A DNA stretch of 64,000 bases from assembly GCA_020431405.1 (NCBI GenBank), contig JAGQIK010000352.1, forward strand, positions 5,316 to 69,315, written 5' to 3'. The stretch's first letter is position 1. Every line of letters starts with the position of its first letter. The notes under the pieces are model-generated. The model did not search any database, was not told the DNA's origin, and saw nothing but the letters and a program-made list of their open reading frames with translations. Source of the stretch: Myxococcales bacterium (lineage in GTDB: Bacteria > Myxococcota_A > Polyangia > GCA-2747355). Both the position numbers and the translations under genes were made by a program. This document shows positions 1,295-41,902 of the stretch, one piece after another.

Positions 1295-1894
1295 CTAGCG
1301 CGGCGGAGGACGCCTGTTGCGGCGCGTCGACTTACCGCGGTCTCGAGACGGCTGATCGAAGGGCAGCTCGAGCTGCACGGGGTCGAGCGTCGACTTGACG
1401 GTCGCTTGTTTGTCTTTGCGCAGCGAGCGCGCGCGCTTCTGCATCGCCGGCCGGCCGACGTTATCGAACCACGTCTTGACGCCGGCCTGATCGGTCACGA
1501 CCGAGACGGCCGTGATGCCGAAGCCCACCGACAGCGGCGGGCCGCCGCCCGAGCCCATCATCATCGACGAGCCGCGCACCTGCAGCCCGACGGGCTTGCC
1601 GGCGGCCAGTCGGCGCGCGGCCGCCTTCTCGCTGAACATCGGCAGCGTCACGAGCTTGCCGCGGAAGCGAAACAGCGGGCGGCGCAGCTCCACGCGCACG
1701 TTCTTGTGCTCCGAGTAGCGGCGGATCTCGTTGCCGCGCTCGCGCGTCCAGCGCTTCGATGACGTCACGCGGTGGCGCAGTGTGGTGGAGAGCGGCGTCT
1801 TGTCGCCGTTGCCGGCGTGCGCGATGTGCGGCGAGCCGAGCGTGAACGCCAGCGCGCAGGCGCCGACGAGCGCGCGCGTGTATGTGCTTGCCAT
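1295..1894 (-). CDS. secreted hypothetical protein
   Basis: Internal ATG (cat 1892-1894) preceded by GGAGGTG RBS gives MASTYTRALVGACALAFTLGSPHIAHA signal peptide; the 277-aa track ORF is an upstream in-frame extension. Confidence 0.5.
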   Translation of the reverse strand: MASTYTRALVGACALAFTLGSPHIAHAGNGDKTPLSTTLRHRVTSSKRWTRERGNEIRRYSEHKNVRVELRRPLFRFRGKLVTLPMFSEKAAARRLAAGKPVGLQVRGSSMMMGSGGGPPLSVGFGITAVSVVTDQAGVKTWFDNVGRPAMQKRARSLRKDKQATVKSTLDPVQLELPFDQPSRDRGKSTRRNRRPPPR

Positions 1895-2040
1895 GCGTGG
1901 CACCTCCTGCCTGCCGACCACACGAAGCAACGCACATACCAGGCGCAACGGGGCGAGATCACGTGCTGGAGGCAACGCCGCGGTGGCTGGGCTAGCCGCT
2001 GCAGCTGCCGAAGCGCGGAGGATCGGCGTAAGATCGCAGC

Positions 2041-2760
2041 ATGCGCCACTGGTCGTTGTTGCTGTCTGTGCTGGTCCTCGCGCTCGCCGCCTGTGGGTCG
2101 CGCACGCGTGCGGTCGGCGGCGACGCACGCGCGAGCGACGCGCGCGCCAGCGACGCCCCGGGTGCCGACGGCCCGCAGCCAGCGGGCTGCACGAACAACA
2201 CGCAGTGCGCGAGCACGCACTACTGCAAGCTCGACGGCGCCTGCGGCGCGCAGGGCCGCTGCGAGGCGCGGCCCATCACCTGCCCGAGTATTGCGGCGCC
2301 GGTGTGCGGCTGCGACGGCAAGACGCACGGCAACGCGTGCACAGCGGCCGGCGCGGGGGTCAGCGTGCGGCGCGACGGGCGCTGCGAGGTCGCCGGCTGT
2401 GACGCCGTCAAGTGCGGCGTGCTCGACGACTGCTGCACCTGCAGCGCGCTCGACTTTCTCAACAGCAAGGCGCCGCCGCCTTGTCCGGCGCCGTGTTTTC
2501 AGACGGTGTGCGCGGCGCGCGGCATCAAGCCGACGGCCTACTGTCTCGCGGGCAAGTGCCTGCTCGCCGACAGCAAGCCATGCCGCGGCGACGATGACTG
2601 CTTCGCCATCGACGACTGCTGCACATGCATGGCCTGGCCGAGGGATCTGAAGCCGCCGCTGTGCGATCTCACCTGCGCGCAGAGCAGCTGCTCGGCGCTC
2701 GGCCTGAGCGGCGCCAAACCGGCCTGCATCGAGGGCAGCTGCCGTCTTTCGCTGCCTTGA
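2041..2760 (+). CDS. Cys-rich lipoprotein with Kazal-type inhibitor domain
   Basis: Signal/lipobox MRHWSLLLSVLVLALAACGS; Kazal signature CPSIAAPVCGCDGKTHGNACTAAGAGVSVRRDGRCE; repeated DDCCTC motifs. Confidence 0.6.
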   Translation: MRHWSLLLSVLVLALAACGSRTRAVGGDARASDARASDAPGADGPQPAGCTNNTQCASTHYCKLDGACGAQGRCEARPITCPSIAAPVCGCDGKTHGNACTAAGAGVSVRRDGRCEVAGCDAVKCGVLDDCCTCSALDFLNSKAPPPCPAPCFQTVCAARGIKPTAYCLAGKCLLADSKPCRGDDDCFAIDDCCTCMAWPRDLKPPLCDLTCAQSSCSALGLSGAKPACIEGSCRLSLP

Positions 2761-2839
2761 TGGCGTGCAATTTCGGGTGCTTGAGGCGCAGTGGGATTTT
2801 TTCCGTCCACTTCGCGCGGTAGCGCCCACGAAGAAAAAG

Positions 2840-5011
2840 ATGCCCCGGTGTCGACGACAGCGTGGTGTGCGCGCGGCCTTCGGGGCGGCACTGACGCTCG
2901 CAGCAATGCTCGCCAGCGGGTGCAAGCTCGACCGCCCCAGCGCCACATCCGCCGAGCAGAAGCCGTGTCTGGCCTGCCACGAGGCGGATCGCGCGCGCGC
3001 CAAGTTCCCCGATCACCTCGCGACGGGCTATCCGACCAACTGCGAGCAGTGCCACTCGCAGAAGGAATGGAAGCCGGCCGCGTTCGACCACAGCGGCTTA
3101 CCGCTGGTCGGCGGCCACTCCAAGACCGACTGCGCCAGCTGCCACAGCAAAGAGCCGGTGCCCACCAAGTGCGTTGGCTGTCACGCCGAAGATCAGAAGC
3201 GCGGCCCCGGTCACACCGCGGCCGGTTTTAACACCGAGTGCCAGAGCTGCCACACGGTCATCGCGTGGAAGCCCGCCACCGACGTCGATCACAGCAAGTT
3301 CCCGTTCGAGGGCGGACACGCCAACGTGGCCTGCATCTCGTGTCACCCCGATCCGAGCCAGCCGTCCAAGCCCATCGGCACCACCTGCGTCGCCTGCCAC
3401 GAAAAGGACCGCAGCACGCCGAAGAGCCCCGACCATCTCAAGACGGGTTTCCCGACGACCTGCGAGAGCTGCCACACGATCCAGACCTGGAAGTCGGCCA
3501 CCTTCCCGCACTCCAAGCTGGCGCTGGTGGGCAAGCACCGCACGACGGCGTGCGCGAGCTGCCACACCGATCCGTCCAAGCCCGAGACAGCCAAGGGCAC
3601 GACGTGCGCCGAGTGTCACGCCGGCGACCGCCCCCAGGGCGCCACGGCTGATCGCCCCGATCACTTCGACGCGGCGCTGCCGCCCTGCCAGTACTGCCAC
3701 ACGGCCTTCGGCTGGAAGCCGGCGGCCAAGGACCACAGCAAGTTCCCGCTCACCGGCCAGCACGGCGGCGTGGCGTGCAGCACCTGCCACACCGATCCGA
3801 GCAAGCCGGACGTGCCCATCGCCAAGACCTGCGTTGGCTGCCACGAGGCCGATCGCTCGAAGCCGACGTTCCCCGATCACCGCGCCGTCGGCTTCTCCAC
3901 CGACTGCGACAGCTGCCACTCGACCAACGGCTGGAAGCCGGCGACGTTCGATCACGGACTCAAGTTCCCGCTCACCGGCGGCCACTCGGGCGTGACCTGC
4001 GCCAAGTGCCACGCCACCGAGCCGGTGCCCAAGACCTGCGTCGGCTGCCACCAGAACGACATCCCGAGCGGCGCCACCGCCTCGCGTCCCGATCACACGG
4101 CGTCAGGCTTCTCGACCGCGTGCAGCGACTGCCACGGCACGGGCGGCTGGAAGCCGGCGTCGTTCAACCACACCAAGTTCCCGCTGACGCAAGCGCACGC
4201 CGGCCCGGTCTGCACCGACTGCCACACCGATCCGCAAAACCCGTCGGTGCCGACGGGCACCACCTGCGAGCAGTGCCACCTCGGCGATCGTCCGCCGGCA
4301 GGCACCAACCCCGATCATCTCGTCGGCGGCTTCCCGACCACCTGCGAGAGCTGCCACACGCCTACGGTGTGGAAGGGCGCGACGTTCGATCACTCGGTCT
4401 ATCTGCCGCTGACCGGCAAGCACAGCATCGTGACCTGCACGCAGTGTCACAACACGACGCCGATGCCGACCAAGTGCGAGGGCTGCCACACGCCGCCGGC
4501 GACCAACCACACGGCGACGACCAACTGCGACAACTGCCACAGCGTCAACGGCTGGAAGCCGGCCGTCGTCGACCACAGCAAGTTCCCGCTGACGGGCAAG
4601 CACGCCAGCACCGCGTGCACGCAGTGCCACACCAACCCGAGTCAGCCTAGCGTGCCGACCGCGACGACGTGCGTGGGCTGCCACAACAGCGATCGCAGCA
4701 CGCCGACGATCCCGAACCATCTCGCCAATGGCTTCCCGACCGATTGCGCGCAGTGCCACAGCACCAACGGCTGGACGCCGGCGAGCTTCACGCACACCTT
4801 CCCGATCACGTCGGGCAAGCACAAGAACAAGCCCTGCAACAACTGCCACCTCGACCCCAACAACCTCAAGACCTACTCGTGTCTGGGGACCTGCCACGAG
4901 CACTCGCTGAGCAAGATGGACGACAAGCACAAGGGGCGCAGCGGCTACATCTCCGGCGACTTCATGCACTGCACCAACTCGGGCTGTCATCCCAACGGCA
5001 GGACGCCGTAG
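2840..5011 (+). CDS. multiheme c-type cytochrome lipoprotein (about 27 CXXCH plus 2 variant haem motifs, paired-CXXCH repeat architecture)
   Basis: ATG 2840 gives MPRCRRQRGVRAAFGAALTLAAMLASGC lipoprotein signal; about 50-aa repeat units each carrying two CXXCH (CLACH, CEQCH, CASCH, CVGCH ... CNNCH) and DHSKFPLTG spacers; upstream 25 codons of the track ORF are not coding. Confidence 0.8.
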   Translation: MPRCRRQRGVRAAFGAALTLAAMLASGCKLDRPSATSAEQKPCLACHEADRARAKFPDHLATGYPTNCEQCHSQKEWKPAAFDHSGLPLVGGHSKTDCASCHSKEPVPTKCVGCHAEDQKRGPGHTAAGFNTECQSCHTVIAWKPATDVDHSKFPFEGGHANVACISCHPDPSQPSKPIGTTCVACHEKDRSTPKSPDHLKTGFPTTCESCHTIQTWKSATFPHSKLALVGKHRTTACASCHTDPSKPETAKGTTCAECHAGDRPQGATADRPDHFDAALPPCQYCHTAFGWKPAAKDHSKFPLTGQHGGVACSTCHTDPSKPDVPIAKTCVGCHEADRSKPTFPDHRAVGFSTDCDSCHSTNGWKPATFDHGLKFPLTGGHSGVTCAKCHATEPVPKTCVGCHQNDIPSGATASRPDHTASGFSTACSDCHGTGGWKPASFNHTKFPLTQAHAGPVCTDCHTDPQNPSVPTGTTCEQCHLGDRPPAGTNPDHLVGGFPTTCESCHTPTVWKGATFDHSVYLPLTGKHSIVTCTQCHNTTPMPTKCEGCHTPPATNHTATTNCDNCHSVNGWKPAVVDHSKFPLTGKHASTACTQCHTNPSQPSVPTATTCVGCHNSDRSTPTIPNHLANGFPTDCAQCHSTNGWTPASFTHTFPITSGKHKNKPCNNCHLDPNNLKTYSCLGTCHEHSLSKMDDKHKGRSGYISGDFMHCTNSGCHPNGRTP

Positions 5012-10553: not shown

Positions 10554-12482
10554 GTGATTTTCAGATCTGTGCTCGTCCCCGTGATGCTCGCGGCGCTCCT
10601 CGCGTGCGGCTGCAGCAGCGACGCCAACAACAACAACAACACGCCCGCCACGTTCGAAGAGGCCTGCGCCCAGGTGCCTGGTTGCCAGACGCCCGAGAAC
10701 GCCGTCGACGGCCCATCGGTGGCGATCTGGCAGGTGATGCTGCAGCGCGACGCGAGCGGCGCTGCCAGCGTGGGAGAGGTGCGCGAGGTCGACGTGCCGA
10801 GCGGCACCGGCGTTCCGCAGGGGCCGCTGTGGGGCGCCTATCGACTCGTAGCCTACGATGCGGCGGGAAAGGTGCTCGACGCGCAGGCGATCCGTTTCCC
10901 CGAGCGGCTGGTCGTCGAGACCGTCGACGGCACGTCGGAGGAGACCGACTTCACCAACAAGGCCTCGTCGGCGCTGGGCTACCTCGAAGTCGACGCCAGC
11001 GTGGCCAAGATCGCGATCACCGACGCCGACGGCAACCAGCTCGACGCGCGCGACGCACCCGCCCCCGGCGAGCGCCGCAGCGCCTCGCTCGCGGGCGTGC
11101 GGCGAAGCGCCGTGTTGCAGGCCACGGCGCGCACGCCTTGCTCGCACGTGCTGCTGCTCGAGCAGAGTGACACGGCGCTCTTCACTGACGCGATCGTCAA
11201 CGAGGGCTACAAGCTCGCGCCGTTGCCGCTGTCGGCCCAGGCGGTGATCCAGGCGGCGCTCGGCCGGCTGACGCCGCTGGCGTGCGCCGCCGTCGGGCGC
11301 ATCGCCTTCGTCGCGTCGGACACGACGACCACCGGCGCGTGGGTCAACGGTCGCTTCGGCGACATGATGATCATCAACGCCAACTTCGACGTCGAAGGCC
11401 ACACGTTCGACGACGCCGGTCTGACCAACGCCGTGACGCGCAGCATCCTCGAGGGGTCGGTGGTGCACGAGGCGGGACACAACGTCTGGCGTCTTCTCAA
11501 CATGGAGGGTGCAAACAATGTCGCCTTCGCCGACGGCTGGTGGACCGAGCGCCAGCGCGGCCCAGCGCGCGCGGCGATCGCCCGCACGCGAATGCTGCGC
11601 GGCTTTGGCTACGAGTGGCGCCGCGTCCACGATTCGTTCGTCGCGCAGGGCTGGGCCAAGCCCTATGCAACGTATCCGCTCGCGCGCTTCAGCTCCGCCA
11701 CGCCGAGCGACGAAGACCTCGTGCGCCATGGGTTCATGTCGATCTACGGCAATCTCGACGACGCCGAAGACATCGCCGAGCTGATGCGCTGGCCGATCTT
11801 CGGCGCCGCCTCGCGCGCCGCCGGTCTGGCTGACGGTTGGGGGCTGCTCGAGACCGCAGACGTGGGCTGCGTGCAGATGGGCGCCCACGGCGACAAGAGC
11901 GTGCCGCAGAAGCTGGCCGTCATCTACACCAAGCTCGCCTTCATGCACGACCTGGGGTTGATCTCCGACCAGGCCTTCACGCGCTGCGCTGGCAGCAACA
12001 TCAGCATTCCGACGCCGGTCAACGGCTTCACCGTCTACGAGTCGGGCAGCGAGAAGCGGCGCTTCGATAAGAGCCCTTCGGCGATCATCGGCTCGCGCAG
12101 CGACAGCTACGTCTTCGTGATGACCGCCGAGGGTACGGCGAGCTTCGACAACGCCGACTACGCAGCCACGGTGCGGCTCGAGCTGCAGCTGCAGAGCTTC
12201 GGCTTGCTCGAGCAGCTGCTCGGCGCGCCCGACGTCAACCTGGTGGCCTGGCCGCGCGGGCTTTATCCGCTCGCCGCCGGATCACCCAACACGTTCTCGC
12301 TCGCGATGCCGGATCAGCCCTTCGGTGACTTTCAGTCGACCAAGGGCTGGGTGCTCGTCACAAACGCGACCAACGAGCTCATCGTCGGCTCGGTCTACCT
12401 CGAGCAGGCGTTCCGTCCGCGTGCAGGTGTGCCCCAGACGTTCGACCCGCCGCTGCAGTTCCGTTTTCGCATGAAGAAGTAG
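10554..12482 (+). CDS. lipoprotein with HEXXH zinc-metalloprotease motif
   Basis: GTG start; lipobox MLAALLACGCSS; Asn-run linker; SVVHEAGHNVW signature; no other recognisable domain. Confidence 0.55.
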   Translation: MIFRSVLVPVMLAALLACGCSSDANNNNNTPATFEEACAQVPGCQTPENAVDGPSVAIWQVMLQRDASGAASVGEVREVDVPSGTGVPQGPLWGAYRLVAYDAAGKVLDAQAIRFPERLVVETVDGTSEETDFTNKASSALGYLEVDASVAKIAITDADGNQLDARDAPAPGERRSASLAGVRRSAVLQATARTPCSHVLLLEQSDTALFTDAIVNEGYKLAPLPLSAQAVIQAALGRLTPLACAAVGRIAFVASDTTTTGAWVNGRFGDMMIINANFDVEGHTFDDAGLTNAVTRSILEGSVVHEAGHNVWRLLNMEGANNVAFADGWWTERQRGPARAAIARTRMLRGFGYEWRRVHDSFVAQGWAKPYATYPLARFSSATPSDEDLVRHGFMSIYGNLDDAEDIAELMRWPIFGAASRAAGLADGWGLLETADVGCVQMGAHGDKSVPQKLAVIYTKLAFMHDLGLISDQAFTRCAGSNISIPTPVNGFTVYESGSEKRRFDKSPSAIIGSRSDSYVFVMTAEGTASFDNADYAATVRLELQLQSFGLLEQLLGAPDVNLVAWPRGLYPLAAGSPNTFSLAMPDQPFGDFQSTKGWVLVTNATNELIVGSVYLEQAFRPRAGVPQTFDPPLQFRFRMKK

Positions 12483-12516: not shown

Positions 12517-14019
12517 CTAGCGGCGCGTCGCGCGGCGCACAGCTTTGAGCAGGCGGCGCTGCAGCTTCGAGCGCGGCACGTAGGCGGCGATCTTGAGCGC
12601 CAGCGCGCGCGACATCTCGTCCATGGCGTCGTCGGGGCCGACGACGACCACCGGCAGGCCAGAGAGCTTGCCGTCCGCGAGCAGCGGCGCCAGCGCGTCG
12701 AGGGCCACGCGCGGCTGTGCGCCGAGATCGACGACGATCGCCTTCTCGTCGTCGGGCGTGATCGCGGCCGGGCTGTCGGCGCGCACGACGCGATAGCCCG
12801 CGCGGCGCAAGTGCGTTGTCGGCGCGTCGGGGGCGCCGGCCGCGCCGTGGTCGACGGCGATGATCTTGCCTTCGGCAGGCTCGGGCTCGATGCGCGGAGC
12901 GCGCGGCGGTGCGTCGCCGAGCACGGCGGAGCGCTCGGCGCGTGTGGCGGCGTAGGTGCCGGTCTTGCGCCGGTGCTGGTCCGAGCTGCGGCCTTCGATC
13001 TGATCGAGCGCCTCGAGCAAGCGCGCCTTGAGGGCGCCCGCGCTGGCGGGCCGCGTCTCGCGGCGCTTGCGCAGCGCCCAGAGCGTGATCTCGTCGAGAG
13101 CGCCGTGCACGTCCGGCGCGGCTTCACTTGGCGGCGAGGGGTCGTCGAGCACGTGCTTGAAGATCAGCGCCTGAACGGTCGGGGCCTTGAACGGCAGGCC
13201 GCCGGTGAGCAGCTCGTAGAGGATCACGCCGAGGGCGTAGATATCGGTCTGCGGCCCGATCGGCTCGCCGGCGCACTGCTCCGGGGCCATGTAGGCGGGC
13301 GTGCCAAGCACGTCGCCTTCGCGCGTGAGCTTGACCGCGCTGTCGGCGATCTTGGCGATGCCGAAGTCGACGATCTTCACGCGCTTGTCGGGGTCGGCGA
13401 GCATCACGTTTTCGGGCTTGAGATCGCGGTGCACGACGCCGGCGGCGTGCGCGACGTCGAGCGCGTCGCAGATCTCGCCCACGATGCGCACCGTCTCGGC
13501 CAGCGGCAGGCGCTTGTCGGGCGAGCTCTTGACCAGCGACTCGAGCGACTGACCCGATAGATACTGCATCGCGATGTAGCTCTGGTCGTTCCACTGGCCG
13601 TAGTCGTAGATCGCGACGATGCCGGGGTGCTCGAGCTTGGAGAGCGCCAGCGCCTCGCGCTCGAAGCGCAGCAGCCGATCACGGCTGTCGACGAGGTGGC
13701 GGTGCACGAACTTGATCGCCACGTCGCGTGCGAGGCCGATCTGCTCGGCGCGATAGACCAAGCCCATCGCGCCTTCGCCGAGGAACGAGCGGATACGGAA
13801 GCGCTTGTTGATCAGCTGTCCGATCAGCGCGTCGGTGCTGGCCGGCTCGGTGGTGGCGCTGCCGAGCCCACCCGTGCCGGCGTTGCCGCCGACGTTGGCG
13901 CCTTGAGCGAGCGTCTCGCCGGTGGACGGTGCCTGCGTTCGCTCGGGCGGCGGCAGGGTCACGCCGCAGCTGGGACAGTTGCCGTCGACGAGGTCGCGGC
14001 CGCAGCGCATGCAGATCAT
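12517..14019 (-). CDS. Ser/Thr protein kinase with N-terminal zinc ribbon and C-terminal receiver-like domain
   Basis: ATG 14017-14019 preceded by GAGAGGAAG RBS and overlapping cyclase TGA stop (ATGA); MICMRCGRDLVDGNCPSCG ribbon; kinase motifs HRDLKPEN, DFG, TPAYMAPE; C-terminal IIAVD...AIVVDLG...PVVVVG...LKIAAYVP pattern resembles a REC fold. Confidence 0.8.
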   Translation of the reverse strand: MICMRCGRDLVDGNCPSCGVTLPPPERTQAPSTGETLAQGANVGGNAGTGGLGSATTEPASTDALIGQLINKRFRIRSFLGEGAMGLVYRAEQIGLARDVAIKFVHRHLVDSRDRLLRFEREALALSKLEHPGIVAIYDYGQWNDQSYIAMQYLSGQSLESLVKSSPDKRLPLAETVRIVGEICDALDVAHAAGVVHRDLKPENVMLADPDKRVKIVDFGIAKIADSAVKLTREGDVLGTPAYMAPEQCAGEPIGPQTDIYALGVILYELLTGGLPFKAPTVQALIFKHVLDDPSPPSEAAPDVHGALDEITLWALRKRRETRPASAGALKARLLEALDQIEGRSSDQHRRKTGTYAATRAERSAVLGDAPPRAPRIEPEPAEGKIIAVDHGAAGAPDAPTTHLRRAGYRVVRADSPAAITPDDEKAIVVDLGAQPRVALDALAPLLADGKLSGLPVVVVGPDDAMDEMSRALALKIAAYVPRSKLQRRLLKAVRRATRR

Positions 14020-15753
14020 GCTTCCTCTCGCAGCTCGAAGATGCGCACCTGCTCCTTGCGCCCGGTGATATCGCGGGCGCCGAGGTCGACGACATCGAAG
14101 TCTTCGCCGAGCTCTTCGCGGGTGGCTTCGCTGATCAGGATCTGTCCCGGCTTGGCGAGCATCTCGAGGCGCGCCGCGATGTTTACCGTGTCGCCGATGG
14201 CCGTGTACTCCATGCGCTTTTCCGAGCCGAGGTTGCCGACGATCGCCGTCCCGGTGCTGATGCCGATACCGAGCTGGAGCTCGCGTCCGAACTCGTCGGC
14301 CCACTTGGCGTTGCCCGTCTCGAGCCACTCGATCATCTCGAGTGCCGCCAGCGCGGCGCGCTCGGCGTCGTCGTCGCGTGGCTCGGGCGCGCCAAAGACG
14401 GCCATCACGCAGTCGCCGATGAACTTGTCGACCATGCCGCCGTGGTTGAAGACAATGCCGGTGAGAAACGTGAACATCTCGTTGAGCAGCCGCCCGCACG
14501 ACGTCTTCGGGCGCGTGCCGCTCGGCGAGCGGCGTGAACGCCACCACGTCGGCGAACAGCACGGTGACCTTGGCGCGTTTTCCGCCGAGCTCGATCGACT
14601 GGCGCTCGTCGACGATCGCCTCGACCAGCGCGTCGCTGAGGTAGCGGCTCATGTTGGCGCGCACGCGCGCCTCGGCGACCAGCCGGTCGCGCGACTCTTC
14701 GAGGCTGCCGGCCATGCTGTTGAAGGAGCGCGCCAGCGCGCCGACCTCGTCGGAGGCGCGCGGCGTGACGCGCGCGGAGAAGTCACCGGACTCGACCAGA
14801 GCCGCGGCACGCGCGATGTCGGTGACCGGCTTGCCGATGCGCCGTCCGAGCAGCAGCCCGACGACCAGCGCGAGCAGCGCCACGACGCCCCCGGCGATCG
14901 CGGCGTAGCGCCAAGCAGCGCGCTCGGCGAGGTAGACCCAGGTGTTGCTCTGCTGCACGACGACGCCCCACTGCACGGCGGGCAGCGCCAGCAGGATCGT
15001 CAGCCGCCGCGCCGAGCCCTTGCCAAGATCGGCGGCGCGCGCGGTGGGGCGCGTCAAGCGCTGGTCGCTCTGGCGCAGCCACGCCATCAGCTCCTTGCTC
15101 GGCTTCGCCGCGCCCCCTCGCGCCAACACGCGCTGTTGGCGATCGACGACGTACAGACCACCACCGGCCTCCTTCTCGAGCCGTCGCTGCGCCGCCTCGC
15201 TGACGGCGTCGATCAGCGGCTTCATCGACACGCGGCTGCGCAAGAAGCCATACACGCGACCTTGCGCCGTCTTGATAGCGATGGTGTGCAAGAGATATGG
15301 CCGTGGTCCCTCGGGATGCTCTTCGATCAGCGGATCGCCCGCCTGCGCGGCGAGCTTGGTGCGAAGCGGCGCCGGCAGCGCGGTCGCGGCCTTCTTCTTG
15401 GCGCTCGAAGCGCCGGCCTGCAGCGCGAGCGCGAGCTCGCCGTCGGGGCTGAAGACCTCGACACGATCGAGCAGATGGGTGCCGCGCAGCCTGCTGCGCA
15501 CCATCGCGACGCGCTGCTCCTGGGTCAGCGAGGTCTCCGTCAACGCGGCGCTGATATCGCCGATGGTGTTGCGAACGCGGCTGAGAAACACGTCGACCTT
15601 CACGCGCACGCTCTCGGCCGTGGCGGTGCGCAGCACGCGAGCCGAGGCGGCCATGTTGTCGGCGTGCTCGTTGGCGAGCACGTAGGCCAGGCCGCCGACG
15701 CTGAGCAGCGAGACGCCGAGCAGCGCGAGCGCGATCTTGATCCACAGCTTCAC
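14016..15753 (-). pseudogene. membrane HAMP-domain adenylate/guanylate cyclase interrupted by a 1-nt insertion frameshift (or sequencing error) in the catalytic domain
   Basis: GTG start 15753; two TM segments flanking an about 240-aa periplasmic region, HAMP, then VTVLFADVVAFTPLAERHAPEDVV in frame A; the catalytic domain continues in frame B (LLNEMFTFLTGIVFNHGGMVDKFIGDCVMAVFGAP...ISTGTAIVGNLGS..YTAIGDTVNIAARLE) to TGA 14016; the frames join at a GGG run (plus-strand CCC 14493-14495), and removing one G restores EDVVRRLLNEMF. Confidence 0.6.
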
Positions 15754-15772
15754 CGCGTCACCGCTTCACGTT

Positions 15773-18007
15773 TCACCGTTTCGCGCCGGCGGTCTTGATC
15801 ACGACGAACCGCACGCGGCGGTTGGCCGCGCGGCCTGCGGCGCTCTTGTTGCTCTTGACCGGCTTGGTCGGACCGAAGCCGACGGCGACCAGCCGGTGCG
15901 CGGCGATGCCGTTCTTGACGAGCACGCGCTTGACCTGCTCGGCGCGCCGCTGCGAGAGGTCGACGTTGAGCTCCTTGTCGCCTTGCGAGTCGGTGTGCCC
16001 CTCGATGCGCAGCTTGCGCACCTGCCAGTTGGCCTTGAGCACGCGTGCGACCTGACTGAGCAGGCTCATCGAGCGCGGCGAGATCGTGTCACGCCCGCTG
16101 GCGAAGTAGACCTTCTCGCTGATCGAGACCTCGCCCTTGACGAGCTTGGCCTTGCCCACGCCCTCGTCGGGGCAGCCGTCGTCATCCTTGATGCCGTTGA
16201 CCGTCTCGGGCTGCAGCGGACACTTGTCCACCGCGTCGGGGATGCCGTCGTGGTCGTTGTCCGGATCAGGACAGCCGTCTTTGTCTTGGAAGCCATCGTG
16301 ATCCTCGGGCTCGTAGGGGCACTTGTCCTGCGGGTTGGGCACGCCGTCGACATCGGGGTCGAGGTCGCCGCGGCTCGCTGCTGCGATGCTGTCCGGCGCG
16401 GCCGGCTTGGCGTAGCGATAGCGCTGGCGCGGGCGCTGCGGGGGCGCCTTGCCCTCGCGCACCAGCTTGGCGTAGGCCTTGGCGGCCTTCTCATTGTAGC
16501 GGATCAAGACCTGCGTGCGACCGAGCTTGCCGCCGAGCCAGTAGACGTGGCAGGCGAGCATCGAGGCGGCGGCTTGCGGCGGCGCGTGCAGCGTGGCGCG
16601 GTAGGTGCCGGCCCCGAGCGCCTTGATCGGCAGCGCGCCGTCGCCGCAGTTGACGGTCAAGCCCGGCACGAACGTCGCCTTGCCGTTGTCGAGGCTCGCG
16701 ACCACGGTGACGTAGGTCTTGCCGCCGCCGTCGATGACGCGGTCGCGGATCGCGAAGCTGGCCTTGATGCCGATCACGTGCAGCGTGACGAACTTCGCCG
16801 GGAAGCCCTGACCCATCACGCCGACGCGCACGCGCCCGCGGCCTTTGACCAGCACCGGCTTGGCGCTGAAGGTCGAGCCCACCGAGACGGTGAAGCCGTC
16901 GGCGGCGATCCAGGCGGCGCCGACCACCTGGATGCGGCCGCGCTTGTCGCGCAGCAGGCGCCGGCTGCTGCGCAGCGTGACCACGCGCAGCATCAGCGAT
17001 TGCGACGAGCGGCTCGAAAGACCGCTGTCGTCGACGGCCTGTACGCGCGCCCAGTAGGTGCCCGGCTTGAGCCGCTCGGCACGAAAGCGCTTGATGCCAG
17101 CGCCCATGGTGACCTCGGCGAGGGGCGCGCGAAGCTGCTTGTTGTTGGCGAGCACGAAGTGGTAGCGCTTCGCACCCGACACCGCGCCCCAGCTCGCCTC
17201 GAAGCGCGCCAGCTCGCCGGGCAGCACCACTTTCATCGCCCGCGTGCCACCGGCCCAGCGCGGCGCGCCGAGCAGGCGACGGGGCTTGGGTGGGCGCTGG
17301 CCGCGCGCCACGGTGACGCCGTGGTTGGTCGGCACCTTCACCGTGCGACCGCGCGCGGCGACCATCGCGTAGCCGTCGAACACCGAGATCGACGAGCGCT
17401 TGCGCTTGTCGACCGCGATCTGCGTGTCGCGCGAGCGCAGCTCGACGGTGGCCGCGGGTGTCTTGACCGTCAGCTTGGCGCGCTTGTCGAGCGCGGCCAG
17501 GCCGCCGCGCACGACACCCTGCTCGAGGCGCACCTCGCGCTGTTTGGAGACGCGCAGGTGGCTGCGCCGCGCGCTGCCGAAGATCACGAGCAGCGCGCGC
17601 TCGCGCAGGCGCAGCTTGGAGCGATCGATGAACGCGATCTCGGCCGAGGCACCATTGCCGGTGTTGACCTTGTAGAGGCGCCACAGCGATTGGTTGCGGC
17701 GCGCGCGCTGCCAGTACGGCGCGCGCGGCCCCTTGGCTTTGACGTTGTTGTGCAGCCACGCCACCTTGCCGGGCGCTGGCGCGGCGTCGAGCAGCAGCTG
17801 GGTGCCTGGCTGGAGCAGGTGCGGCGGCGGTCCGAGCTTGTTGTGCTTGTGGATGACGGTGTAGCGCTTGCCCTCGCCGATGAAACGCTCGGCGATGTTC
17901 CAACACGTGTCTCCGCGCTGGACGATGTACTTCTGCAGCTTGCGGGCGTGGGCGCTCGTGCTCGTCAGCACGGCCATCAGCAGTGTAAGTGCTCGAATCA
18001 GCGGCAT
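15773..18007 (-). CDS. LysM / FecR-like / thrombospondin type-3 repeat / OmpA-domain outer-membrane protein
   Basis: Signal peptide; LysM block YIVQRGDTCWNIAERF; TSP3 Asp-rich repeats DKDGCPDPDNDHDGIPDAVDKCP; C-terminal OmpA/MotB peptidoglycan-binding block (LRIEGHTDSQGDKELNVDLSQRRAEQVKRVL...NRRVRFVV). Confidence 0.8.
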   Translation of the reverse strand: MPLIRALTLLMAVLTSTSAHARKLQKYIVQRGDTCWNIAERFIGEGKRYTVIHKHNKLGPPPHLLQPGTQLLLDAAPAPGKVAWLHNNVKAKGPRAPYWQRARRNQSLWRLYKVNTGNGASAEIAFIDRSKLRLRERALLVIFGSARRSHLRVSKQREVRLEQGVVRGGLAALDKRAKLTVKTPAATVELRSRDTQIAVDKRKRSSISVFDGYAMVAARGRTVKVPTNHGVTVARGQRPPKPRRLLGAPRWAGGTRAMKVVLPGELARFEASWGAVSGAKRYHFVLANNKQLRAPLAEVTMGAGIKRFRAERLKPGTYWARVQAVDDSGLSSRSSQSLMLRVVTLRSSRRLLRDKRGRIQVVGAAWIAADGFTVSVGSTFSAKPVLVKGRGRVRVGVMGQGFPAKFVTLHVIGIKASFAIRDRVIDGGGKTYVTVVASLDNGKATFVPGLTVNCGDGALPIKALGAGTYRATLHAPPQAAASMLACHVYWLGGKLGRTQVLIRYNEKAAKAYAKLVREGKAPPQRPRQRYRYAKPAAPDSIAAASRGDLDPDVDGVPNPQDKCPYEPEDHDGFQDKDGCPDPDNDHDGIPDAVDKCPLQPETVNGIKDDDGCPDEGVGKAKLVKGEVSISEKVYFASGRDTISPRSMSLLSQVARVLKANWQVRKLRIEGHTDSQGDKELNVDLSQRRAEQVKRVLVKNGIAAHRLVAVGFGPTKPVKSNKSAAGRAANRRVRFVVIKTAGAKR

Positions 18008-18087: not shown

Positions 18088-19380
18088 CTAGCAGCTGCCG
18101 TCGGTCAGGCAGCGGCGCATCACGCCGGCGGGATCGCCGCCGACGATGATCAGCCCGTTGCCGCCCACAACGCGCACGCTGTTGTAGAAGCCCTTGTCGG
18201 GCGGCGTGCGTTTCCAGACCTCCTTGAGGTCGCTCATGGTCAGCTTGACGATCACCGGCTGGACCTTGGACATGTCGTCGGTCCAGCCCTGTCCGCCCAC
18301 CGCGTAGATATGCGTGCCGTCGGTGGCGATGCCAACAAAGCCGTCCTTGGTGCCCGGCTGATCGAGCACGTAGGAGGTCGCCTTTGCCGTGCGCAGATCG
18401 ATGCGCACCACCACGCCGCGCAGGTCGTTGGGGTCTTCGTAGGAAAAGCCTGCGACGTAGGCGTCGTTGCCCACCACCAGCATGCCGCGCACCTCCGTGT
18501 TGCGCGAGACGCCGTTCTCGGCGTCGGTGAAGATCACGCTGTTGTCGCGCTCGAAGTCGCAGGGCGGCGCGTCGCAGCGCGCGGCGCTGTCGAAGGTCAC
18601 GGCGAAGGCCTCGTGCAGCGTGGCGGGGGCGGGCGCGGGGATGCGACCGCCGACATACATTTTGCCGTTGGCGGCAAACAGCCGCCGGCCCGCGCCGCCG
18701 AACGGCGAGAAGCCGCACGGTGGGCCGCAGGTCGCTTGCGTGGTGGGCAGCTTGACGATCCAGGTGTTGGGACCGTTGGCGTTGCCCGTGACCCACAGCG
18801 AGCCGTCGAGCGCTTCGATATCCCAGACCTCGTCGGCGCCGCTGCTGCCCGTCAGTCGCGTGGTCCAGTCGACGGCGAGCGTCGAGGGGTCGACCTGCGC
18901 CACGAAGCCGTCGCGCGGGTCGCCGCCCTCGCGCGGCACCATGTTGCCGGCGACGTAGAGCTTGCCGCCGCTGGCGGTGATGCCCGTGCCGACGGCCGAC
19001 GTGGCGCCCGGTACCTCGAAGTCGCGGCTCGCGCGCAGCGTGCCGCACGGATCGATAGCGGCGACCGACGCGCGCGCGCCGACCTTCGAGGCGACGAAGA
19101 TCGTGCCGCTGCTGTCGATGTGCAGGTCCTTGACCGATGCTGCGAGCGAAAGACGCCAGGTGGTCGGACAGCCGCTGGCAGGCGTCGCGTCTGCGCCGGC
19201 GCCGCTGTCGGCCGAGGCGCCCGAGTCGAAGCTTGGCGTGCCCATGTCGGCGCTCGACGCGCGCGAGTCCGCCCCGCTCGCGCTCGGGTCACCGCCGAGA
19301 GACGGTTCGAGGCCACCTGCGCAAGCCACGAGGTTTAGAACCAGCCAACATGCCGACGTGATGGCCTGGACGTGGGTCAT
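18088..19380 (-). CDS. lipoprotein, probable beta-propeller-like repeat protein
   Basis: GAAGGGGGG RBS before ATG 19378-19380; lipobox LVLNLVACAGG; Ser/Asp-rich linker then repeated ..LYVAG../..MYVGG../..AYVAG../..IYAVGG.. strands. Confidence 0.55.
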   Translation of the reverse strand: MTHVQAITSACWLVLNLVACAGGLEPSLGGDPSASGADSRASSADMGTPSFDSGASADSGAGADATPASGCPTTWRLSLAASVKDLHIDSSGTIFVASKVGARASVAAIDPCGTLRASRDFEVPGATSAVGTGITASGGKLYVAGNMVPREGGDPRDGFVAQVDPSTLAVDWTTRLTGSSGADEVWDIEALDGSLWVTGNANGPNTWIVKLPTTQATCGPPCGFSPFGGAGRRLFAANGKMYVGGRIPAPAPATLHEAFAVTFDSAARCDAPPCDFERDNSVIFTDAENGVSRNTEVRGMLVVGNDAYVAGFSYEDPNDLRGVVVRIDLRTAKATSYVLDQPGTKDGFVGIATDGTHIYAVGGQGWTDDMSKVQPVIVKLTMSDLKEVWKRTPPDKGFYNSVRVVGGNGLIIVGGDPAGVMRRCLTDGSC

Positions 19381-19571
19381 GTGCCGCCCCCCTTCGGTTG
19401 TGCTCGATCGCGGTGCGATGTGTAGAGCAGGGACCGTGCCGGCGCCGAGGAGGCGGCATTTCGGCGGCTTGGCGGGGCGGCAGGTGGCGAAACGAGGGGC
19501 GTGCAGACCGCAGCGTTACGTCGAGGTGGCAGCGGTGGCTAGGGTGCGCCGCGTGCTGCGCCAGAGCCGCG

Positions 19572-22872: not shown

Positions 22873-25106
22873 GACCGCACCTCCGCCTTGGCGATGCGAA
22901 CGAAGTTGACGTTCATCCCGGTGCCGCCCATCAACGGGTCGACCTTGACGCGCGTCACCAGGTCGCTGTCGCAGGCGCCGCGCCCGCGCGCGAAGCGCAG
23001 GCCGCGCGCGCTATGGCCAAAGCCGTGCACCATGTAGACGCAGTCGCCGCGTATTCGCTCGGTGACGCGCGCCTTGATCGGCGTCGACTTGATGCCGTCC
23101 TGATTGACGAGCACGACTTTGTCGCCCGTGCGCAGCGGCGGGTCTTCGAACCCTGGCAGCGCGCGCGCCGCGGCGCGGTTGATCCAGACCTCGTTCTCGC
23201 TCATCAGCTCGCCGAGCTGACGGTTGTTCGTCGTGCGGCCGAAGGTGTGCATCGGCGCGCGCCCGGTGAGCAGGCGGAACATCCCTTGCGGCGGCTCTTC
23301 GGGTGACGAGGGCTCGGGCATCGGGTGGAAGCCGAGCTTGGCGAGCTGGTCGCTATAGAGCTCGACCTTCTTGCTCGGCGTGTCGAAGCTCGGCGCCGGC
23401 AGGCCGTCATCACGACACGCCGGCACGCGCTTGCCGAGCACCACGCCGTCGCGCGCCAGCGCGGCGAAGTCGATCTTGGCCGCGGCGGCGCGCCGGCGCA
23501 CCACGTCCTCGCTGCTCTGGTAGTTGAACTGCGCGCCGAGCCCGAGGCGCTCGCCGAGCTGCTTGGCGATCCACCAGCCAGGCTTGCTTTCGTACATCGG
23601 CGGCACCACCTGCTGGCGCAGCGCGACGTAGGGCTCCTTGTAGGCCGGCACGTGCAGGTCGTCGGTGCGCTCGAGGTAGGTCGCCTCGGGCAGCACCACA
23701 TCAGCCCAGCCGACGATCTCGGCCGGCAGCACGTCGATGGCGACGAGCAGGTCGAGCTTCTCGATCGCCGCGCGCGTGTGGCGCGGATCGGGCAGCGCCT
23801 GCATCAGGTTGGTGCCGTAGACCATCCAGCCTTTGATCGGATAGGGCTTCGCCGTGACCGTCGCGTCGCACAGCCCGGAGGCGAGCGCCGCGCCGGCGAG
23901 CGGATGTTTGCCCGGCAGGCGGTCGGCGCGCGGGCGATGCGGCTTGCGCGCGGACTTGGGGTACTTGTCGCCCGGCACCTCCATCGACGTGGGCAGCAAG
24001 TAGCCGCCGCGGCGACCCCACGAGCCGAGCAGCGCCGAGAGGATCGCGACCGCGCGGCTTCTCTGCGCGTCGTCGCCGTACCAGGTGGCGCGCCGTCCGG
24101 GATGCACCAGCGAGGCCGGCCGCTGCGAGGCGATGAAGCGCCCCGACTCGCGGATTAGCTGCGGCGCGATGCCGGTGAGCGGGTAGGCCCACTCGGGCGT
24201 CTTGTCTGCGACGTGCGCTTTGAGCTTGTCGAAGCCGACCGTGTGCTTGGCGACGAAGTCAGCGTCGTAGCGCTGCTCGCTGATGATGACGTTCATCCAG
24301 GCGAGCAGCAGCGCGATGTCGGTGCCCGGTTTGATCGGCAGCCAGTACTTGGCCTTGCCCGCGGCGATGGAAAAGCGCGGGTCGACCACCACCAGATCGG
24401 CGCCGCGCTCGATGGCGCGCGCCATGTCCTGCACCTGGGTGTTGTGCGTGTTCTCGCCGAGGTGCGAGCCGATCAGCGTCAGGCAGCGCGTGTTCTCGAT
24501 GTCCACGGGCTCGGGCGAGCCGACGCCTTGGCCGTAGGTCAGCTCGAAGCCGACCTCGCGCGGACCGCGACACTGCGCGTAGGACGGCGCCGCGATGTTG
24601 GGCGAGCCGAAGCTCTTGAAGAGCCGCTTGAACCACGAGCCGCCGAAGCCGTGATAGAAGAGCGCCAGCGCCTCGGGGCCGTGTGCCTTGCGGATGCGCT
24701 CCATGCCTTCGGCGACGCGGTTGAGCGCGGCGTCCCAGGAGACCGGCTCGAAGCGTTGCTCGCCGCGTTTCGAGACGCGCACCAGCGGCTTCTGCAGTCG
24801 GTCGGGATCGTAGAGCAGGCCCGTGCCGCCGGTGCCGCGCGGACACAGACGCCCGCGCGAGAGCGGATGCTTGGGGTTGCCGACGATCTTGGTCACGCGA
24901 CCGTTCTTGACGTGCGCCAGGACGCCGCACTTCCAGAAGCAGAGCTCGCAGAAGGTCGGCACGACGTTGTCGCCGTCTGTGTCGGGTGTGATCCCCGCGC
25001 TCGCCGTCGCGCCCCACCAATCCGAGACGAGACCGCTCGCCAGAGCGGCCGCGCCAAAGCTACCCGCGGTGATCTTGATGAACTGCCTGCGATCGATGGA
25101 GGACAT
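22869..25106 (-). CDS. molybdopterin (Mo-bisPGD) oxidoreductase catalytic subunit, PsrA/PhsA/TtrA/ArrA clade, Tat-exported
   Basis: Tat signal SIDRRQFIKITAGSFGAAALASG; N-terminal FeS motif CELCFWKCGV...(27)..CPRG; 745 aa; followed by FeS and NrfD subunits. Confidence 0.85.
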   Translation of the reverse strand: MSSIDRRQFIKITAGSFGAAALASGLVSDWWGATASAGITPDTDGDNVVPTFCELCFWKCGVLAHVKNGRVTKIVGNPKHPLSRGRLCPRGTGGTGLLYDPDRLQKPLVRVSKRGEQRFEPVSWDAALNRVAEGMERIRKAHGPEALALFYHGFGGSWFKRLFKSFGSPNIAAPSYAQCRGPREVGFELTYGQGVGSPEPVDIENTRCLTLIGSHLGENTHNTQVQDMARAIERGADLVVVDPRFSIAAGKAKYWLPIKPGTDIALLLAWMNVIISEQRYDADFVAKHTVGFDKLKAHVADKTPEWAYPLTGIAPQLIRESGRFIASQRPASLVHPGRRATWYGDDAQRSRAVAILSALLGSWGRRGGYLLPTSMEVPGDKYPKSARKPHRPRADRLPGKHPLAGAALASGLCDATVTAKPYPIKGWMVYGTNLMQALPDPRHTRAAIEKLDLLVAIDVLPAEIVGWADVVLPEATYLERTDDLHVPAYKEPYVALRQQVVPPMYESKPGWWIAKQLGERLGLGAQFNYQSSEDVVRRRAAAAKIDFAALARDGVVLGKRVPACRDDGLPAPSFDTPSKKVELYSDQLAKLGFHPMPEPSSPEEPPQGMFRLLTGRAPMHTFGRTTNNRQLGELMSENEVWINRAAARALPGFEDPPLRTGDKVVLVNQDGIKSTPIKARVTERIRGDCVYMVHGFGHSARGLRFARGRGACDSDLVTRVKVDPLMGGTGMNVNFVRIAKAEVRS

Positions 25107-25133
25107 ATCTAGAACCTTTCGGGAGTGCGCGCG

Positions 25134-25499
25134 CTAGAGGCGGCAGCCGGCCATGCACCCGACGAGCTCGATCAATCGAGGCTCGTCGATGCGGTACAGC
25201 CCGCGGCCGCCTGTGCGGTCGACGGCGACCAGTCGCTGGGTGCGCAACACGCGTAGCTGCTGCGAGACGATCGCCTGGTTGGCGTCGAGCGCTTCGGCCA
25301 GCGCGTTGACGTGTCGCGGCGCCTGCGCGAGCAGGGCGACGATGCTGATGCGCAGCGGGTGCGCGAGCGCCTTGAGGATCTCGGCGACATGCTCGGCGCG
25401 CGCGCGATCGTCTGCGATCGATGGGTGGGGAGGGTCCGACGACGACGGGGTTTCCGAGGCGGATGTGACGTCGGTGTGAATAACTCGCGATGTAGCCAT
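25134..25499 (-). CDS. ArsR/SmtB-family HTH transcriptional regulator with C-terminal CxxxC
   Basis: GAAGGGA RBS before ATG 25497-25499; HTH block ILKALAHPLRISIVALL...LAEALDANQAIVSQQLRVL; C-terminal GCMAGC Cys pair; 27 bp upstream of psrA-like gene on same strand. Confidence 0.75.
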   Translation of the reverse strand: MATSRVIHTDVTSASETPSSSDPPHPSIADDRARAEHVAEILKALAHPLRISIVALLAQAPRHVNALAEALDANQAIVSQQLRVLRTQRLVAVDRTGGRGLYRIDEPRLIELVGCMAGCRL

Positions 25500-25718
25500 A
25501 ACGCTATATCCCTTCGTCGCGATAAGGCTAGGCAGGGACTGTGCCACTCTGCGAGTGCGAGTAATTTCAGCTATATGGCGGACAGATTGGGATGACAGGC
25601 CGCAGAAGGTGGATCGCTGCGTCCCGACTGGACTGTCAGCTTGGCAGGCTGCGGGTCAGATCGGCGCGATTTCGGCGCGGGGGCGGGAGAGGGTGTGCCA
25701 GCCCAGGGCTGACGGACG

Positions 25719-26636
25719 CTACTCGGCGTTGATGCCGGTCTTGAGGATCTGCCAGCGCATGCCGAGCGCCTGGCTGTTCTGCGGCGACTTGTCGCCGCTG
25801 CGGATCTTGCGGTAGTCCACCGGCGCGACGGCGGTGGTGACGCCGCCGAGGAAGCTGTGATCGGCGATCAGCGAGCCCGGCTGAATCGCCGTGTGCACGT
25901 TCTCGGTCTTGTTCGCCACGGGGTAGTCGGTGGCGCTGGCGATGTCGACGTTGCCGTAGACGATCTCGATCTTGCTGTCCTGCAGCGTCGAGCCGATCTT
26001 GATGCCCGAGATGGGCTCGGTGTGTCCGTACTTCACGCCGCTGCCGTCGCGCGGGATGTGCACCTTCATGCGCGCGTCGCCAGGGCTGAGCTTGAGCAGG
26101 TCTTGCGGCGAGCGCACGTTCTTGACGAGCAGCGCGGGCGACATGTTGTCGATGACGTGCAGGGCGCCGGTCTTCTGGCGCAGAAAACGGATGAACTCTT
26201 CAGGCGAGCGGAAGTCGGCGCTGTCGATCCAGCGCGCGCGCCAACGCGAGCGACCGTCCTCGGTGACGCGCACGTAGACCTTGAAGGGGACGCGCAGGCC
26301 TTGGTTCTTGGCGAAGGTGTGCAGGTTGATCAACGCGAGGTCGGCGCAGTCGGCGACGAGCCCGTCGCGCACGGCGCCCTTGAGGAAGCGCGCCGAGTGC
26401 TCGGCGAACGCTTGCTGCACGAGCTTGACCTTGGCCTTGTCGTTGAACCAGTTGGCGCCACCCGTGGTGAGCGCCCACGGGTGCGACTGCTGCACCTGGC
26501 GGATGCGCTGCGTGCGGCTCAGCTCTTGTGACGTATAGGCCTTCTTGCCGGCGAAGTCTCCGGCGTGGGCGGTGCTCGCCAGCGTGGAGGCGGCGAGGAT
26601 GGCGGTGAGGATGGATATTCTTCGTCGTGATCTCAT
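25719..26636 (-). CDS. secreted hypothetical protein
   Basis: Signal peptide MRSRRRISILTAILAASTLASTAHA; no recognised motif. Confidence 0.55.
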   Translation of the reverse strand: MRSRRRISILTAILAASTLASTAHAGDFAGKKAYTSQELSRTQRIRQVQQSHPWALTTGGANWFNDKAKVKLVQQAFAEHSARFLKGAVRDGLVADCADLALINLHTFAKNQGLRVPFKVYVRVTEDGRSRWRARWIDSADFRSPEEFIRFLRQKTGALHVIDNMSPALLVKNVRSPQDLLKLSPGDARMKVHIPRDGSGVKYGHTEPISGIKIGSTLQDSKIEIVYGNVDIASATDYPVANKTENVHTAIQPGSLIADHSFLGGVTTAVAPVDYRKIRSGDKSPQNSQALGMRWQILKTGINAE

Positions 26637-29605: not shown

Positions 29606-29621
29606 GCGCGGGAGATGCTCA

Positions 29622-30050
29622 CTAAGGGCAGGTCCCCTGAGCGCCGTTGCCGGCGATACACGCTAGCCCGCTCGGGCAGCCCGCGTTCTCGCAGCAGTAC
29701 ACAGGCGGCGTCGCCGGTGTGCACACGCTGTTGATGCAGTCGGAGCCCTGCGTGCAGCCGCAGGCGTTGATACAGGTGGTGAGCGCGAGGTCGCGTGTCG
29801 TGTCGGGAGCGCTGACCCCGTCCACCGTCGCATCGACGACCGCTGTGTCGGTGGCTGCGTCAACGGTTACGCCGTCGCCTACGCCCATGTCGCTCGAAGA
29901 GTCGACGTCCGAGTCAACGTTCTTGCCGGGCTTCGTGGAGGGCAAGTTGCCGAGCGATCCAGGGATGCGCGGCGGGGAGCTCGAGTTGCTGCAGGCCGCG
30001 ATCGCCAGGCCGATCAAGGCCAGCGCGACAAAGGAGGTAAGCGTACGCAT
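29622..30050 (-). CDS. small Cys-rich lipoprotein
   Basis: Lipobox ALIGLAIAACSNSS; Asp/Val-rich linker; C-terminal 10-Cys module CINACGCTQGSDCINSVCTP...CCENAGCPSGLACIAG. Confidence 0.55.
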   Translation of the reverse strand: MRTLTSFVALALIGLAIAACSNSSSPPRIPGSLGNLPSTKPGKNVDSDVDSSSDMGVGDGVTVDAATDTAVVDATVDGVSAPDTTRDLALTTCINACGCTQGSDCINSVCTPATPPVYCCENAGCPSGLACIAGNGAQGTCP

Positions 30051-30130
30051 GACATCAGCAGTCTATCGCAATTCGACTGGATATTCCCTTCGGCGGCGAG
30101 ATCACGGAGCGCCCACCGTATTATTGCGGC

Positions 30131-41639: not shown

Positions 41640-41902
41640 CGCATCTGGCTGCCCTTGCTGCCGCGCCGGTTGTAGCCGACGGCGATCTGCTGGCGCTTGT
41701 CGGCCTCTTGCTGGCAGCTCACGCACAGCCGCACGCCGGGCACGGCGCGCCGGCGCGCCTCGGGGATCGCTTCGCCGCAGTCGGCGCACTCGCTCAGGCC
41801 AGGGCCGCGCGGCAGGCGGCTTCGGATCTGCCCCACCGCGTCGTCGATGCTGGCATCGATCTGCTCTTGAACCGCCCCATCTCTGGTGAACCCACTCGCC
41901 AT
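41636..41902 (-). CDS. TraR/DksA-family C4-type zinc-finger protein
   Basis: AGGAGA RBS before ATG 41900-41902; CADCGEAIPEARRRAVPGVRLCVSCQQ zinc finger; 88 aa; the 415-aa track ORF is an upstream extension; stop overlaps convergent bcp stop (CTAG). Confidence 0.7.
   Translation of the reverse strand: MASGFTRDGAVQEQIDASIDDAVGQIRSRLPRGPGLSECADCGEAIPEARRRAVPGVRLCVSCQQEADKRQQIAVGYNRRGSKGSQMR

Follow-up and report, generated by a model that had tools for sequence, protein, structure and literature searches.

The 64-kb stretch of a Myxococcales bacterium metagenome-assembled genome (MAG) analysed here (the window; GC-rich, with 70% GC) carries on its minus strand, at 12517-18007, what is with high confidence a conserved myxobacterial three-gene unit. 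It consists of an envelope protein, a cyclase with two transmembrane (TM) segments and a HAMP domain, and a Hanks-type Ser/Thr kinase that is coupled to the cyclase by an ATGA overlap and ends in a divergent domain of receiver fold. The cyclase gene is broken by a change of reading frame within its catalytic domain, which an earlier reading made from the letters of the window alone (the sequence-only reading) had ascribed to a one-base frameshift in a homopolymer. The sequence does contain this frame break, at the position given by that reading; judged against every relative examined, the lesion is a tandem duplication of 4 bp and not a one-base homopolymer change. The event is ordinary in kind, being a disrupted gene or an assembly flaw that yields a false fusion in a conserved, uncharacterised signalling operon.

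The minus-strand open reading frame (ORF) starting with GTG at 15753 reads cleanly into the beginning of a class III cyclase domain, ...VTVLFADVVAFTPLAERHAPEDVV (...ERHAPEDVV). After the GGG at 14493-14495, the cyclase resumes in another frame (LLNEMFTFLTGIVFNHGGMVDKFIGDCVMAVFG...), which continues until a TGA at 14016-14018. This change of frame is evident from the GC content at third codon positions (GC3), which stays at 0.9 or above in frame A until about 14540, beyond which frame B has 0.86-0.92, and from a six-frame Viterbi scan of the whole window on codon-position GC and stop codons, which placed the switch at 14490/14491. It is also evident from the Pfam match of the repaired cyclase, i.e. 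the protein obtained by rejoining both frames across the break, whose residue numbering is used here for catalytic positions. This protein matches Guanylate_cyc (PF00211) with 110.4 bits (cut-off 21.9, E=1.1e-31) from residue 394 to 569 without interruption across the break, and the match holds as a single domain only after the repair. The 5' part of the gene in frame A (14498-15753) encodes the GTG start, TM1 as a signal-anchor helix, a periplasmic sensor region of about 250 aa, TM2, HAMP, and the start of the catalytic domain with its first strand and helix and the first metal-binding Asp (FADVVAFT). The 3' part in frame B (14016-14489) encodes the remainder of the catalytic domain and ends with ELREEA and TGA. 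The domain is therefore not contained in one continuous frame, as D402 lies in one frame and the other catalytic residues in another. Because the first metal-binding Asp is separated from all other catalytic residues, no active cyclase could be formed from this sequence.

The nature of the lesion was deduced from relatives retrieved in a search of 5.8 billion proteins. Eight intact cyclases (P0001-P0007 and the cyclase of locus L004; 576-594 aa) with 42-63% identity to the repaired window protein were used for the protein alignment, and the DNA was compared for the three relatives whose loci were fetched, namely L001 (GCA_002754915.1), L003 (JGI), and L004 (a Polyangia MAG). Thus, an intact cyclase, for which the sequence-only reading had suggested looking in orthologs, is present in eight relatives. 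At the site of the break, 8/8 relatives have a single Arg (PE(D/E)(V/I)V-R-LLNE), encoded in L001, L003, and L004 by GTC/ATC GTG CGG CTG CTC AAC GAG. The window has GTC GT[GCGG][GCGG]CTG CTC AAC at this position, with four extra bases that form an exact tandem repeat at 14490-14497 (plus strand CCGCCCGC) where the relatives have one GCGG. Counted on the compared codons, L004 and the window are identical over 15 nt on either side of the insertion. The change from GCGG to GCGGGCGG falls within helix alpha-1 of the catalytic domain, and the net effect of four added bases is a frame change of +1. The proposal that deletion of one G restores a protein, EDVVRRLLNEMF, that agrees with the cyclase consensus did not hold, because this repair leaves one extra Arg that has no counterpart in 8/8 relatives. 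Removal of GCGG restores the reading of the relatives in protein and DNA alike, and the one-base deletion model was rejected on this ground. A single 4-bp event is also more parsimonious than a 3-bp insertion combined with a 1-bp insertion.

The gene downstream of the break shows no sign of decay. Of 78 columns downstream of the break that do not vary among the eight relatives, one is changed in the window (L425M), and the relatives, scored in the same way by leaving one out, show 0-5 differences, so that there is no excess of changes in this test. Asp402, Lys442, Asp446, Thr516, Asn523, and Arg527 are all kept in the window cyclase and invariant in the nine-sequence alignment. The break is thus either very recent or not biological. 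The frame scan detected no second switch within a gene in the 64 kb, each of the others being located where a stop codon marks the boundary of a gene. This, together with a 4-bp duplication being atypical of a homopolymer error, tips the balance towards a real allele, and on moderate confidence the lesion is regarded as a very recent loss-of-function allele, which might be fixed or merely a variant picked by the assembler.

A serious, though clearly less probable, explanation is that the gene is intact in the organism and that the extra GCGG was added during assembly or polishing of the MAG. The otherwise perfect state of the gene, with its catalytic residues kept and only 1/78 invariant columns changed downstream, would agree with such an artefact, as would the very GC-rich short repeat at the site and the origin of the sequence from a single contig of a MAG without an independent assembly on record. 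Exact look-ups of the 1078-aa product predicted from this locus (see below), in the form of the window translation and of P0241, returned no gene, its cluster has one member from one 77,184-bp contig, and neither allele (GAAGACGTCGTGCGG N{0,4} CTGCTCAACGAGATGTTCAC) was matched in a scan of metagenomes. An assembly prone to indels would be expected to contain further frame breaks, which are absent from the 64 kb, and the change is a 4-base tandem duplication rather than an altered homopolymer length. Such duplications are an unusual error signature for both short-read and long-read platforms, and a sequencing error of the homopolymer type is a poorer explanation than the sequence-only reading had assumed. 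Three points nevertheless weigh against a recent duplication allele. The absence of decay fits a real mutation and an assembly or consensus error equally well. Octamers consisting of two copies of a 4-mer are frequent in this GC-rich window (4.5 per kb), so that the case for a duplication comes from the relatives and not from the repeat itself. Finally, the ancestral single Arg is derived by parsimony and not read from a sister strain, since identity to the nearest relatives is only about 60%; among species-representative genomes, no cyclase relative exceeded 42% identity.

Recoding had been considered the least likely of three origins in the sequence-only reading, and this ranking is upheld. 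Programmed +1 ribosomal frameshifting or transcriptional slippage, by which a full-length cyclase with one extra residue would be restored, is very unlikely and the least credible of all explanations considered here. Its sole support is the intact downstream frame, as a +1 shift at CGG-G would yield VVRRLLNE. The likeness to programmed frameshifting of the prfB type is limited to this need for a +1 shift to restore the cyclase frame. Unlike such sites, the window site has no in-frame stop and no Shine-Dalgarno-like stimulator upstream, and the frameshift is not conserved, as all relatives examined encode the protein in one frame, which leaves nothing conserved to program. Neither a slippery or stall site nor an evident hungry codon was found at this position, and the run of G residues is only 3, which is too short for transcriptional slippage. 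The product would furthermore gain an extra residue in the catalytic helix alpha-1.

The frame break also explains the 1078-aa ORF at this locus, which is the frame-A read-through of the 5' part of the cyclase gene into the kinase gene (P0241) and has been deposited at NCBI as MCA9668654.1, 'protein kinase'. Its description as a false fusion in the sequence-only reading was correct: MCA9668654.1 is an annotation artefact, a chimera of the disrupted cyclase and the 500-aa kinase, and not a designed fusion. Because the ATG of the kinase overlaps the TGA of the cyclase (ATGA), the kinase is in the frame of the cyclase N-terminus after a net change of +1. The 158 out-of-frame codons in between (AAAQRDVHVSHRH...RAARGS) are rich in Arg and free of stops. 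Ribosomes starting at the cyclase GTG would therefore translate these codons and then enter the kinase, and the DNA would encode a membrane-anchored fusion protein. With 0.0056 stops per codon in the -1 frame of this genome, 158 codons stay open with a chance of 41-43%, which makes the fusion an unremarkable accident.

The exact agreement of the shifted frame with the kinase frame and its openness over 158 codons could also be taken as the mark of a selected, possibly reversible fusion of sensor, HAMP, linker, and kinase (1078 aa), in which the output is rewired from cAMP to phosphorylation. Tandem duplications can revert, and the GCGG duplication might even be a slipped-strand switch kept in the population, which alternates between a cAMP sensor with a separate kinase and the 1078-aa sensor-HAMP-kinase fusion. 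If so, one envelope sensor would change its output from a second messenger to protein phosphorylation. A selected fusion is very improbable, since the frame is open by chance in 41-43% of cases, arrival in the kinase frame is another 1-in-3 chance, the linker consists of out-of-frame codons rich in Arg, the fusion has no counterpart in any relative, and the sole 1078-aa match is the protein of the window itself. Two copies of a 4-mer are also atypical of a phase-variation tract, and a reversible switch is considered very unlikely as well. The practical use of the finding lies in correcting the record MCA9668654.1, whose middle 158 residues are out of frame; false fusions of this sort pollute surveys of domain architecture.

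The cyclase itself has the layout TM, periplasmic domain, TM, HAMP, and catalytic domain. The HAMP domain (PF00672; 53.7 bits, cut-off 25) comprises residues 301-353 (nt 14695-14853) right after the hydrophobic stretch 283-303. Precomputed matches to dCache_1 exist for orthologs, and Pfam gave no dCache_1 match for the sensor region of the window cyclase. The class III catalytic set of D402, D446, K442, N523, and R527 is present, with roles assigned from the family motifs. The motif EYTAIGDTVNIAARLE would set Thr516 at the position of the Asp of YDIWG, a placement made by comparison of the two motifs. Lys442 and Thr516, as a probable substrate pair of class IIIb, suggest that the protein is an adenylate cyclase of class IIIb type. 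In the sensor half (residues 1-330, window 14760-15753), 15 of the 93 columns that do not vary among the eight relatives have a substitution unique to the window, for instance P18S, G193E, H212R, Y239R, and V277E; most relatives have 0-1 in the same test. This excess over the 1/78 of the catalytic half may represent a lineage-specific change of the sensor.

At the junction of cyclase and kinase, the stop codon of the former overlaps the ATG of the latter at 14016-14019, and a Shine-Dalgarno-like GAGAGGAAG at 14021-14029 falls within the last codons of the cyclase ahead of the kinase start; both signals of the coupling (14016-14029, minus strand) were read in the sequence as previously described. 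The overlap is ATGA in the window and in L001 and GTGA in L003. In the orthologs L001, L003, and L004, too, the codons of the conserved cyclase end ELRE(E/D)A contain GAGGA, and the end of the cyclase protein and the ribosome-binding site of the kinase thus appear to constrain each other.

A broader view of this junction was obtained from a context set of 84 loci, consisting of L001-L004 and 80 loci (L005-L084) from Myxococcota species genomes that were fetched via the cyclase alignment. The set spans Polyangia, Nannocystaceae, Sandaracinaceae, Kofleriaceae, Bradymonadia, and the isolate Paraliomyxa miuraensis. In 55/84 loci the cyclase is immediately followed by a kinase gene on the same strand, and according to a manual tally from intergenic distances about 43 of these 55 kinases have the frame that a 4-nt NTGA overlap would give, compared to one third expected by chance. 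The pairing had been taken for an unusual signalling unit; it is a common arrangement, and the coupling of cyclase and kinase is the rule in this widespread myxobacterial module and no oddity of the window.

The kinase (500 aa; 12517-14019, minus strand) consists of an N-terminal CxxC-x8-CxxC motif, a low-complexity linker, a Hanks kinase domain, a further linker, and the receiver-like tail. Its designation as a canonical Ser/Thr kinase is well founded, with a match to Pkinase (PF00069) of 166.6 bits (cut-off 31.7), a kinase domain at aa 76-330 (nt 13030-13794), and invariant VAIK, HRDLKPEN, DFG, and APE motifs (K103, H197-N204, D218-G220, P246-E247). Its identity to the full-length orthologs P0121-P0124 is 55-59% when taken from the alignment and 56-62% by BLASTP. 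The zinc ribbon that had been read at the N-terminus is seen as a motif only: the four Cys residues (C3-x2-C6-x8-C15-x2-C18; residues 3-18, nt 13966-14013) are present, but the Pfam family DZR reaches 13.6 bits against a cut-off of 27.3, and the motif is shared by P0121 and absent from P0122-P0124, i.e. from three of the four closest orthologs.

The last approximately 115 residues of the kinase (aa 385-500; 12520-12867, minus strand) are conserved in eight kinases and had been proposed to resemble a receiver (REC) domain, with structure prediction named as the way to examine this. Pfam gave no match for the tail even at E<=1, Response_reg (PF00072) included. An AlphaFold2 model based on the 8-sequence alignment (pLDDT 84.1, pTM 0.76) has the order b1-a1-b2-b3-a3-b4-a4-b5-a5, i.e. 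a (beta-alpha)5 fold. The 50 best Foldseek matches listed from the PDB (E about 1e-5 to 5e-4) comprise 48 regulatory domains of receiver or receiver-like type and two entries of the pseudo-receiver AmiR; the top TM-scores, to GlnR regulatory domains, are 0.63-0.65 when normalised to the query and 0.73-0.78 when normalised to the target. With a tail-derived profile, about 60 proteins were retrieved from 1.84 billion representatives at E<1e-10, of which all 11 checked with Pfam consist of a kinase and an unannotated tail. Proteins with a Response_reg domain according to Pfam are also matched by this profile, at E 1e-5 to 1e-12, and the response regulator 3eq2 from the PDB was matched with E=9.5e-5 and the Asp in register. 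Alignment by hhalign with Escherichia coli CheY was weak (probability 34%, E=4.4e-4) with the residues in register. Asp431 (VVDL) ends beta-3 (model strand E65-71) and is invariant in 8 close relatives, with Asp in 51/61 members of the family. The fold had been anticipated and an Asp is present, and the tail is modelled as a receiver (CheY-like) domain with an Asp at the phospho-acceptor position.

The residues at the Thr/Ser and Lys positions do not support a functional receiver. The Thr/Ser position is Gly in 61/61 family members and is followed by Pro (Gly461-Pro462 in the window), and the position of the beta-5 Lys is never Lys but E, R, A, S, G, or H (Pro482-Arg483 instead of Lys-Pro in the window). 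Under the same profile, true receivers have T/S in 102/140 cases and Lys in 60. The acidic pair after beta-1 is Asp-His in the window and mostly a single Glu in the family, in which a second acidic residue is rare. Based on the family-wide Gly in place of Thr/Ser and the lack of Lys, the tail probably represents an atypical or pseudo-receiver that may serve regulation or dimerisation. Of the genes with a Pfam annotation that adjoin the unit in L001, L003, and L004, none is a histidine kinase. Detection of the tail is clear in the seven loci most closely related to that of the window, weak in five others, and partial in Paraliomyxa (hhalign probability 76%). The signature VVDL...PVVVVGP...YVP, unannotated in Pfam, occurs in about 60 representative Ser/Thr kinases, P0242-P0297 among them.

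The first gene of the unit encodes an envelope protein of 744 aa (MCA9668655.1; 15773-18007, minus strand) with matches to OmpA (81.6 bits, cut-off 27.2), FecR (39.9, cut-off 24), and LysM (27.3, cut-off 20.9). The order LysM-FecR-OmpA protein, cyclase, and kinase is identical in L001, L003, and L004, all with an intact cyclase, and in L001 and L003 each of the two junctions is a 4-nt overlap. In the window, the OmpA-family gene ends 19 nt ahead of the cyclase GTG (15754-15772). In the larger set, nearly every locus has a gene homologous to the LysM/FecR part of the OmpA protein close by, often just past the kinase. Among the closest relatives the FecR-type gene is the upstream one; in more distant relatives, such as Paraliomyxa miuraensis SMH-27-4 (L019), it follows the kinase. 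In the Sorangium and Minicystis loci, there is no kinase directly downstream of the cyclase, and matches to kinase and FecR-type genes are found upstream on the opposite strand.

Among Myxococcota, a HAMP cyclase of receptor type thus habitually precedes a Ser/Thr kinase, usually with a 4-nt overlap and accompanied by a LysM/FecR envelope protein, and the module points to an uncharacterised envelope-sensing pathway that joins cAMP and Ser/Thr phosphorylation. From the domains, it can be proposed that a periplasmic or envelope signal would act on the sensor domain and, via HAMP, alter the synthesis of cAMP. The kinase would be made in a fixed proportion to the cyclase by translational coupling, and its pseudo-receiver tail would be a regulatory or dimerisation module and not a canonical phospho-Asp switch. 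A counterpoint to this proposal is that the suggested functional link of cAMP, the kinase, and the FecR/OmpA protein is drawn from conserved gene order. No description of the module was found in literature searches on myxobacterial cyclase-kinase or kinase-receiver pairing, pseudo-receivers in kinases, and kinase architectures.

The genes flanking the unit at 10554-12482 (plus strand, 642 aa) and 18088-19515 (minus strand, 475 aa) have strong coding periodicity and no Pfam match at E<=0.01. In the 64-kb window, neither Rfam families at the gathering threshold nor tRNA genes were detected. The Viterbi scan called five non-coding stretches of 0.7-1 kb in the otherwise densely coding window (1882-2906, 24978-25719, 29553-30240, 41063-42006, and 42470-43182), which may be genes of atypical composition or true intergenic DNA.

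All parts of the module are of known kinds, and pairings of cyclases and kinases are already known. The family TIGR03903, a TOMM kinase/cyclase fusion, matches both window proteins with 68.3 and 168.6 bits, far below its cut-off of 705.75. It shares with the window the recurrent combination of Ser/Thr kinase with class III cyclase, whereas in the window the two are encoded by distinct genes, in reversed order and with no TOMM context seen. With Hanks-type kinases such as PknB/Stk1, the window kinase has the complete kinase core with all catalytic motifs in common. It differs from them by lacking a TM segment and PASTA repeats and by having the N-terminal Cys4 motif and the C-terminal receiver-like domain. 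Accordingly, NCBIfam PknB_PASTA_kin (NF033483) matches the kinase domain only, with 306.8 bits against a cut-off of 450. The tail resembles CheY-like atypical receivers, such as those of actinobacterial GlnR (4o1h/4o1i) and AmiR (1qo0), in its (beta-alpha)5 fold and the Asp at the end of beta-3, but differs from CheY-like receivers in having no Response_reg match, Gly-Pro in place of Thr/Ser, no beta-5 Lys, and an acidic pair reduced to one Glu or Asp.

For the cyclase, the nearest comparison is with class IIIb HAMP adenylate cyclases such as Rv3645 of Mycobacterium tuberculosis. Both have a membrane anchor followed by HAMP and a class III catalytic domain, in the window with a probable Lys/Thr pair as in Rv3645, two metal-binding Asp, and an Asn/Arg transition-state pair. 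Rv3645 has an anchor of 6 TM segments, in contrast to the 2 TM segments and the periplasmic domain of about 250 aa in the window cyclase, which is dCache-like in orthologs, and the window gene is in addition frameshifted and translationally coupled to a kinase. To our knowledge, no coupling of the Myxococcus xanthus cyclases CyaA or CyaB to a kinase or a FecR/OmpA protein is known. By description, the window cyclase can be likened to these two proteins as a myxobacterial membrane receptor-type class III cyclase, and CyaA and CyaB are known osmosensors (cited in PMC7643160). That a HAMP domain can transmit signals from periplasmic receptors with 2 TM segments to a cyclase of class IIIb type has been demonstrated with Tsr/Tar chimeras (PMC4821796), and this is the same arrangement of parts as in the repaired window cyclase.

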